Assembly: GCA_049512075.1 (NCBI GenBank)
Contig: JBEKXL010000001.1
Location: forward strand, 96,001 to 160,000
Origin: Candidatus Bathyarchaeia archaeon
GTDB lineage: Archaea > Thermoproteota > Bathyarchaeia > Bathyarchaeales > Bathycorpusculaceae
DNA length: 64,000 bases
Reading direction: 5' to 3'
The notes beneath the pieces are model-generated. The model ran no database searches and was not told the origin of the DNA. It worked only from the letters and a program-made list of their open reading frames with translations. The stretch's first letter is position 1. Each line of letters opens with the position of its first letter. Made by a program: the position numbers and the translations under genes. Positions 56,434 to 57,161 of the stretch are shown here, piece after piece.

Positions 56434-57161
56434 ATGTCTATTATGGTGCTTCGAGTGGAAGGAAGTGAGTGGGAGAAGCTCATCCAGAGCTTGATTAAGG
56501 ATGATATCCTCCGCTCTCCAAAGGTAATCCAGGCAATGCGCTCTGTTCCGAGGGAGAAATTCCTCCCCGAAAACATGCGATCCTACAGCGCTAAAGACAC
56601 GCCGCTTCCGATTGGTTTCGGGCAGACGGCTTCGGCGCCACATAGCCTCGGCTCAGCTCCGAGACTAGGCGAAACATGGTCTCAATCATGAATGAAGCCC
56701 TGCAGTTGGAATTAGGCAACAAAGTTCTCGAAGTCGGAGCGGGTTCAGGCTGGCACGCCGCCACAATAGCGGAGCTGGTTGCACCAAGCGGTGCTCCCCG
56801 GAGCGAATATGGCCATGTCTACACTGTGGAAATAGTTCAGGACTTGGCTGATTTCGCAAGAAAAAACATAATGAAAGCCGGATACGGCGACCGCGTCACA
56901 ATAATCAGCGGCGACGGCTCGCTCGGTTTCCCAGAAAAAGCCCCATATGACAAGATCCTAGTGACTGCAGCGGCGCCAGACATTCCGAAACCGCTAATCG
57001 ACCAGTTAAAATCGGGCGGCATCATGCTAATCCCTGTTGGAAGCGCATCTCTATTCCAAAACCTGATGAAAATAGAAAAAACAAACGGAAAAATCAAAGA
57101 AGAAAACCTCGGCGGAGTGGCGTTCGTACCTCTCACAGGAAAGCACGGCCACAGATTTTAA
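56434..57161 (+). CDS. pcm: Protein-L-isoaspartate O-methyltransferase, intron-containing: join(56434..56641,56674..57161), 231 aa
   Basis: [27 protein letters not shown] | [42 protein letters not shown]. Confidence 0.92.
56642..56673 (+). other. 32-nt bulge-helix-bulge pre-mRNA intron (predicted)
   Basis: CGCC/GGCG 4-bp helix, ACA and AAA 3-nt bulges, TAGCCTCGG/CCGAGACTA inner stem; canonical cuts restore CCA CAC ATG. Confidence 0.82.

Follow-up and report, generated by a model that had tools for sequence, protein, structure and literature searches.

Watanabe reportedly described, in 2002, an intron in the cbf5 pre-mRNA of Crenarchaeota. Beyond tRNA and rRNA, this was the only archaeal mRNA intron of its kind named as reported in the accessible text of a 2020 study, which itself added an intron in the 5' untranslated region (UTR) of HVO_1309 of Haloferax volcanii (PMC7714728). 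Unconfirmed intron predictions for Sulfolobus genomes and for a virus of Sulfolobus are mentioned in the available sections of a 2009 paper (PMC2738675), and the corresponding sections of a 2025 paper cite only work on cbf5 for protein-coding genes (PMC12397907). Here, we analyzed a stretch of 64,000 nucleotides (nt) from a Candidatus Bathyarchaeia archaeon (assembly GCA_049512075.1, contig JBEKXL010000001.1, positions 96,001 to 160,000; referred to as the window), in which pcm, the gene of protein-L-isoaspartate O-methyltransferase, is interrupted by a 32-nt insert at positions 56642 to 56673. Very likely, this insert is a real bulge-helix-bulge (BHB; tRNA-type) intron in the pcm pre-mRNA, and pcm would probably be the second archaeal protein gene, after cbf5, with a coding-frame BHB intron cut by the tRNA-splicing enzymes. 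No report of a pcm intron was found in a literature search that had subscription journals and supplementary files outside its reach. What would be new is thus a cbf5-type mechanism in another gene, documented from genome sequences across an uncultured class.

As described in the available text of Yokobori (2009; PMC2738675), the crenarchaeal cbf5 intron resembles that of pcm in its position after the first letter of the codon of a key conserved residue, in its lineage-varying lengths, which include in-frame ones, in a patchy distribution suggesting gain and loss, and in its occurrence in hosts with more than one subunit of the splicing endonuclease EndA. However, cbf5 encodes an RNA pseudouridine synthase and pcm a methyltransferase of protein repair, and the lineage concerned is Bathyarchaeia; moreover, the outer helix of the pcm motif (1 bp) is much weaker than that of the cbf5 motif in the same genome (4 bp). 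With the BHB introns of archaeal tRNA and rRNA, the pcm intron shares the succession of a 3-nt bulge, a 4-bp helix and a second 3-nt bulge, the predicted position of the cuts within the bulges and the enzymes expected to make and seal them. At tRNA position 37/38, the central helix is likewise formed by the end of the 5' exon and the 3' end of the intron. Unlike these introns, that of pcm lies in an mRNA, where the reading frame must be restored, where no tRNA body aids recognition and where the exon strand of the helix also codes, which places a constraint on synonymous codons.

In the unconventional splicing of HAC1 and XBP1 mRNA in eukaryotes, IRE1 cuts the mRNA, and Trl1 or RtcB ligates it. 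As proposed for pcm, a non-spliceosomal endonuclease acts on a coding mRNA at two stem-loop sites, a tRNA ligase joins the pieces, and a change of frame is needed for the active protein, but the endonuclease and the structure of the sites are different, and stress regulation is established there and hypothetical for pcm. The participation of RtcB in XBP-1 splicing is given in the accessible part of PMC8718801. According to the accessible text of PMC7714728, the archaeal splicing endonuclease acts on the mRNA that carries the HVO_1309 intron, as is proposed for pcm mRNA, and removal of this intron is apparently needed for efficient expression; it lies in the untranslated leader of a euryarchaeal gene and was shown experimentally, whereas the pcm intron lies in coding sequence and we infer its splicing.

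Anatomy of pcm and its insert

The list of open reading frames (ORFs) in the window contains two that belong to pcm and lie on the same strand, ORF1 (56434 to 56691) and ORF2 (56676 to 57161). ORF1 reads up to ...GQTASAPH, continues for 16 codons out of frame and ends at the TGA at 56689 to 56691, and ORF2 starts with MVSIMNEAL. The profile PF01135 (protein-L-isoaspartate O-methyltransferase) matched residues 14 to 73 of ORF1 with its positions 4 to 63 (E = 1.6e-13) and residues 1 to 157 of ORF2 with its positions 61 to 209 (E = 6.5e-45), and because the two ranges meet on the profile, the two halves of pcm abut. NCBIfam models likewise identified ORF2 as protein-L-isoaspartate O-methyltransferase, and the S-adenosylmethionine (SAM)-binding fold lies wholly within ORF2. 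The insert splits the gene inside the conserved SAPHMV motif; once it is taken out, a single in-frame ORF of 696 nt results, with the His codon composed of C and AC from the two sides. An earlier reading of the letters of this stretch (the initial annotation) had claimed that a 32-nt insert divides pcm into two ORFs, that excision of 56642 to 56673 yields SAPHMV in frame and a product of 231 aa, that the unspliced frame ends at the said TGA, and that the junction has a BHB layout with a CGCC/GGCG helix, ACA and AAA bulges and a 9-position stem with one mismatch. All of the coordinates hold, the letters read as stated, and both the spliced and the unspliced frame were confirmed (Table 1).

Distribution of the insert among relatives

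The genome of the window (2.73 Mb, 86 contigs) is 99.8% complete, and pcm is present in 39 of its 40 nearest genomes (40 of 41 with the window's own included). Among 30 pcm loci from these 40 relatives, 25 carry an insert of 29 to 40 nt between the Pro codon and the ATG, and the other 5 read plain CCN-CAC-ATG with no insert. A larger set was composed of the nearest-relative loci and the 80 best loci of a species-level genome collection, with genomes overlapping between the two sources; it comprised the 109 loci with both exons, and L083, which has no exon 1, was left out. Results revealed that 86 of the 109 loci have an insert of 28 to 40 nt at the same phase-1 site and that 23 have none, with lengths of 28 nt (4 loci), 29 nt (4), 30 nt (6), 31 nt (32), 32 nt (37), 33 nt (1), 35 nt (1) and 40 nt (1). 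After identical junction stretches were merged, 73 insert-bearing and 21 insert-free sequences were retained.

Beyond the order of the window, pcm inserts were detected in other Bathyarchaeia families, with lengths of 54 nt (G049) and 22 nt (G104), together with in-frame inserts of 45 nt containing a TGA (G076) and of 27 nt containing a stop (G239); pcm without an insert was found in G109, G168 and G230 of other families as well. In addition, 401 genomes from across the phylum were scanned with an exact pattern of the conserved ends, which matched 20 of them, 19 in the window's own order, and these counts are lower bounds because the pattern requires exact ends; the reversed control pattern matched none of the 401 genomes. 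The remaining match is in G422, which belongs to another class of the same phylum and whose pcm is split likewise by a 23-nt insert. Two further genomes, G344 and G077, had been flagged for in-frame stops and were rejected, their genes being intronless and the counted stops lying outside the coding part.

Regarding size, the 22-nt pcm intron of G104 (C73, about 1400 to 1450; L118) has an inner stem of 4 bp, and this intron and the 17-nt cbf5 intron of G018 (L160) may be near the lower limit for BHB introns. As to the gene itself, a pcm match (E ≤ 1e-5) was obtained in 8 of 40 genomes of genus g17, from the window's own family, most of them more than 90% complete, and a large part of this genus may have lost pcm.

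Structure and covariation of the junction

The proposed structure was scored on the alignment of the 73 insert-bearing sequences, to which all counts in this section refer, with 12 pairs (the closing pair, 4 central pairs and 7 intron-stem pairs). All cells (100%) of the central helix are paired, and both bulges are exactly 3 nt long. Of the four central pairs, only the second varies, with GC in 71 sequences, AU in one (L087) and GU in one (L030), and the closing G-C pair is invariant. Changes on both sides were observed in 7 of 7 alignable intron-stem pairs and in 8 of all 12 pairs, with a covariation score reached by none of 500 shuffles and with 54 cells changed on both sides, compared with 17.7 ± 2.8 in the shuffles. 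Pairing amounted to 90.8% of the cells and dropped to 17 to 44% when the 3' partner was slid by 1 to 3 columns. The innermost counted stem pair is poorly aligned (unpaired in 50 sequences) because loop lengths differ, the intron loop being variable in both sequence and length. By folding anchored at the ends, the inner stem was found to measure 5 to 11 bp, with no mismatch in 43 sequences, one in 26 and two in 4.

In minimum free energy (MFE) folds, the central helix forms and the two bulges stay open in all 73 sequences in a minimal context and in 51 in a 71-nt context. RNAalifold, supplied with no structure, recovered the central helix, the 3-nt 5' bulge and the intron stem, and it added a distal 3-bp exon-exon helix, (G/A)AC:GU(U/C), with one-sided changes only. 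Considering these models, the predicted 5' site is canonical and the predicted 3' site relaxed, making the motif relaxed rather than canonical. The initial annotation had already described the exon-exon helix as weak and the BHB as relaxed, which agrees with the one invariant G-C pair and the distal helix devoid of two-sided change; its suggestion that pcm of related genomes be aligned for same-site inserts also came out in its favor, as the inserts of relatives keep the BHB geometry and have covarying stems. The closing G-C pair by itself proves little, because coding also fixes its letters. No Rfam family matched the insert, the sole hit being a miRNA model on the other strand at chance level (E = 0.31).

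A hairpin at a break in a gene could also belong to translational recoding, with the ribosome bypassing the 32 nt or shifting frame over them, as in the hopping on T4 gene 60. Known bypass sites have a hairpin downstream of the break, and a stable hairpin does lie just 3' of the break in pcm. However, there are no matched take-off and landing codons that would give His-Met-Val, since the only repeated triplet, CAT, lands in the wrong frame; moreover, the length of the insert varies from 22 to 54 nt, the conserved pairing of the exon with the 3' end of the insert is unneeded for bypass, and endonucleolytic splicing enzymes are encoded in the same genome (described below). Ribosomal bypass was rejected on these grounds, and we regard recoding as highly improbable.

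Coevolution of exon and intron and the predicted cut sites

The 5' strand of the central helix is made up by the adjoining Ala and Pro codons of the exon. In 72 of the 73 intron-bearing genes the Ala codon before the break is GCG, and the Pro codon is CCA in 72 of 73 as well. The 21 intronless genes use GCT (4), GCA (8), GCG (6) and GCC (3) for Ala and all four codons for Pro. Where the exon has GCA, the intron has GGTG and not GGCG, as seen in L087 and, in another family, in G076.

These observations bear on the possibility that pcm is a split gene that is not spliced, with ORF1 and ORF2 (from the ATG at 56676) translated apart, their fragments assembling, and the hairpin and AGGCGA acting as a coupling or ribosome-binding element. 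An ATG directly follows the insert in all 73 sequences, preceded at 4 nt by AGGCGA (AGGTGA in L030 and L087), which is similar to the Shine-Dalgarno motif, and ORF2 by itself includes the whole SAM-binding fold. This ATG, however, encodes the Met of the conserved HMV and is present in intronless genes too, and 71 of the 73 sequences have GGCG and not GGTG, the better match to Shine-Dalgarno. Moreover, GGTG is found in L087 and G076, where a change in the exon base keeps the pairing, and in L030, where it forms a G-U pair. The match between exon GCA and intron GGTG and the codon bias at Ala and Pro are predictions of RNA pairing, whereas a ribosome-binding role of AGGCGA does not predict them. 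Separate translation would also leave the fixed 3-4-3 geometry and the synonymous-site constraint in the exon unexplained, and it would place the break inside a conserved motif, while cbf5 of the same genome is cut in its catalytic Asp codon with no start codon adjoining exon 2. Overall, we consider an unspliced split gene improbable.

For removal of a BHB intron, the coding product indicates where the cuts would fall. With the bulge ACA, cuts after the second or the third letter give an identical product, but in L029 (bulge TCT) and G239 (bulge TCA) His results in silico solely from a cut after the second letter. EndA substrates are cut after the second bulge letter. In the 73-sequence set, all seven in-frame inserts (30 or 33 nt) have an in-frame stop within 6 to 18 nt and are therefore not simply read through; in all cases, the insert causes either a frameshift or an in-frame stop.

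Presence in independent DNA and selection on pcm

Logan contigs from runs X3, X4 and X5, which come from different studies and are not likely to be the source sample, span positions 56596 to 56764 or the whole stretch and have the insert in place, with no deletion or joint. The X5 contig differs from the window by six letters, one of which is in the intron loop, and therefore represents another strain that has retained the insert. Since contigs of three other studies carry it, the insert is not an assembly artefact, and the check for such an artefact, which the initial annotation had named as a way to refute its claim, came out in its favor. In 16 diverse intron-bearing genes, with pairs of dS outside 0.05 to 3 excluded, the ratio of nonsynonymous to synonymous substitution rates (dN/dS) was 0.11 for exon 1 (57 codons, 82 pairs) and 0.06 for the first 36 codons of exon 2 (88 pairs). 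Purifying selection acts on both pcm exons.

Automatic gene calling would yield a pair of fragments here, as it would for a pcm pseudogene with an insertion or for an assembly error. Against a dead gene or an artefact stand the independent contigs, the 86 of 109 loci that share the insert, the dN/dS of 0.06 to 0.11 and the precise intronless versions in nested lineages; both explanations were rejected on the strength of the contigs, the shared loci and the low dN/dS, and are scarcely credible.

A second intron, in cbf5, and the splicing machinery

The whole genome was scanned for strict BHB motifs whose removal joins two open frames. The loose filter returned 28,234 candidates, mostly ordinary gene-to-gene junctions, and the strict filter 567, and of these pcm and cbf5 alone had a stable motif together with coding scores that were positive on either side. 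These two mRNA introns are a lower bound, as relaxed motifs and introns of more than 75 nt are missed by the strict step; the scan of the genome's split genes, as proposed in the initial annotation, nevertheless brought up cbf5 as a second case. The cbf5 motif has a 4-bp outer helix (GGGA/TCCC) and an energy equal to the MFE (-14.2 kcal/mol), and the intron interrupts the catalytic Asp codon after its first letter. The same position of the cbf5 intron is given for Crenarchaeota in the available text of PMC2738675. In the relatives, 25 of 30 cbf5 loci have introns of 17 to 32 nt at the same site and 5 have none, and the exon strand (CTCT, CCCT or CCTT) covaries with the intron strand (AGAG, AGGG, GGGG or AAGG). 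A different kind of interruption was observed in G032 (C66, 1843 to 4212), where the cbf5 match is broken into residues 1 to 102 and 93 to 253, about 1.6 kb apart within a single open frame of 873 aa; this resembles an element inserted in frame, for instance an intein, more than a BHB intron.

Two genes matching PF01974 (EndA) are present in the window's genome, encoding proteins of 185 aa and 195 aa. The 185-aa protein aligned end to end with PDB entries 2cv8_A (E = 5.7e-42) and 3p1z_B (E = 2.3e-37), which we take to be the catalytic EndA subunits of Sulfolobus tokodaii and Aeropyrum pernix, and it has the Tyr, His and Lys that presumably make up the EndA catalytic triad. In the 195-aa protein, Thr replaces the His; its matches were to the non-catalytic, N-terminal half of EndA models with two domains and, weakly, to 'subunit beta' models. 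By this resemblance, the two paralogues, one catalytic and one non-catalytic, probably form an EndA heteromer of the (alpha-beta)2 type. RtcB is encoded at C15:44496-45806 (597 bits), about 20 kb from the EndA paralogue on C15. The host is accordingly equipped with the cognate enzymes, two EndA paralogues and RtcB, that the initial annotation had invoked. In addition, among 44 tRNA genes ARAGORN assigned introns to 21, several of them in non-canonical places; a few of the assignments are doubtful, two of them, with 'introns' of 2338 nt and 460 nt, looking spurious.

Whether the insert might be removed from the RNA by another nuclease and ligase, or by self-cleavage, rather than by EndA and RtcB was weighed on the same evidence. 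With hardly any outer helix, the 3' site departs from a textbook EndA substrate, which would leave room for such a route; yet hairpins of 28 to 40 nt are too small for a ribozyme and belong to no Rfam family, and the geometry is exactly that of EndA substrates. Furthermore, EndA of the (alpha-beta)2 and epsilon2 types cuts non-canonical pre-tRNA introns, according to the accessible text of PMC5829648. Removal by other means appears improbable to us, leaving EndA and RtcB as the expected agents.

Table 1. Features of the interrupted pcm gene and related loci of the same genome. Positions are those of the window unless a contig is named.
Feature	Position	Strand	Remarks
pcm exon 1	56434..56641	+	up to the first letter of the His codon; start uncertain, ATG 56434 or ATG 56443
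G of the single closing exon-exon pair G56635-C56675	56635..56635	+	G-C in 73/73 sequences; coding constrains both letters too
Central helix, 5' strand CGCC (exon), 4 bp	56636..56639	+	pairs in 73/73 sequences
5' bulge ACA, predicted cut after 56641	56640..56642	+	three unpaired letters in 73/73 sequences
Putative BHB intron, 32 nt	56642..56673	+	same-site inserts in relatives; independent DNA contigs
Intron hairpin	56643..56667	+	stem 56643-51 with 56659-67, 9 positions, one C-A mismatch; loop 56652-58
Central helix, 3' strand GGCG (intron)	56668..56671	+	pairs with CGCC 56636-39; covariation, RNAalifold
3' bulge AAA, predicted cut after 56673	56672..56674	+	A-N-A in 73/73 sequences
pcm exon 2	56674..57161	+	last two letters of the His codon, MVSIMNE..., SAM-binding fold, stop TAA 57159-61
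cbf5 BHB intron, 23 nt	C18 39489-39511 (plus-strand letters; L138 1489-1511)	gene on minus	canonical motif
EndA paralogue	C2:113994-114551	minus	PF01974
EndA paralogue	C15:23312-23899	plus	PF01974

Evolutionary history of the introns

A quick maximum-likelihood tree was constructed from 93 distinct PCM proteins, 73 from insert-bearing and 20 from insert-free genes. On this tree the insert trait needs at least 8 changes, with no more than 2 forced when the starred branches alone are considered, and shuffling of the tip labels resulted in 18.3 changes on average, with none of 500 shuffles as low as 8. Insert-free pcm genes are nested among insert-bearing ones, and every deep branch has the insert. 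Such a distribution would fit one old gain followed by several clean losses, although gain and loss are not formally separable because the tree is unrooted and many of its forks are weak. The intron looks old; several Bathyarchaeia families have it, and so does a single genome from another class. Moreover, G012 and G007 have kept the cbf5 intron and lack that of pcm, G013 and G030 show the reverse, and G006 is without both, the two introns having been lost independently of each other.

Proposed splicing of the pcm pre-mRNA

In the mechanism that we propose, the exonic CGCC and the GGCG close to the insert's 3' end would form a helix, producing two opposite 3-nt bulges separated by 4 bp, flanked on the inside by the covarying intron hairpin and on the outside by a single G-C pair. 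A splicing endonuclease, probably the EndA heteromer, would cut after the second nucleotide of each bulge, and RtcB would join the exons, rebuilding the His codon of SAPHMV and with it the 231-aa protein-L-isoaspartate O-methyltransferase; the excised 32-mer would probably be circularised. Unspliced mRNA, ending at the TGA of ORF1, would be unable to make the enzyme. The view of the initial annotation that this is a spliced mRNA intron in a protein-repair gene is thereby supported in silico by conservation, covariation, the enzymes present and the cbf5 case.

Several points weigh against this interpretation. Cleavage, ligation and circularisation of the intron in vivo are what we infer from DNA alone, none of 24 sequencing runs listed for this stretch being recorded as RNA. 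The outer exon-exon helix consists of one G-C pair, in the RNAalifold model the distal helix closes a 7-nt loop that contains the 3' cut site, and the 71-nt MFE fold is without the motif in 22 of the 73 sequences. In an 81-nt context of the window's own sequence, a competing fold has the minimum free energy (z = -1.14), with a stability equalled or exceeded by 29 of 200 shuffles; single-sequence thermodynamics neither supports nor refutes the motif, and the comparative data exceed chance. The shuffle statistics of the alignment, in turn, overstate independence, because related sequences share ancestry. The conserved AGGCGA just 5' of the exon-2 ATG resembles a Shine-Dalgarno sequence, which leaves a small probability for separate translation of exon 2. 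A search of metagenome contigs for the 16-letter exon-exon junction gave at least 120 stretches, and the best of the 23 that were compared agreed with the window's joined exons in 53 of 80 letters; the compared matches are intact pcm genes of other organisms or chance and speak neither for nor against splicing.

Biological meaning

Regarding function, the idea put forward in the initial annotation, of the intron as a link between pcm expression and splicing capacity, is speculation. A broader version of it would count pcm and cbf5 among a few ancient mRNAs of Bathyarchaeia and allied Thermoproteota for which the tRNA-splicing machinery gates translation, with the pcm intron as a regulatory checkpoint tying protein repair to EndA/RtcB activity or RNA-repair stress, a counterpart of IRE1-HAC1/XBP1 and no neutral relic. 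Its persistence over many genera, its repeated precise loss and the same first-letter codon site in both genes are compatible with such a checkpoint, which we nonetheless consider unlikely.

The location of both introns after the first letter of a key residue's codon raises the question of how such introns are gained and for what reason they are retained. Introns of 22 to 54 nt with a relaxed 3' site would offer a natural series of substrates for studying the specificity of EndA. Moreover, gene callers will probably list pcm and cbf5 of these genomes as fragments or pseudogenes, by which metabolic reconstructions would be distorted. With a pcm intron that extends over many genera of an abundant uncultured lineage, the splicing of mRNA by the tRNA machinery would be no curiosity of a single gene.

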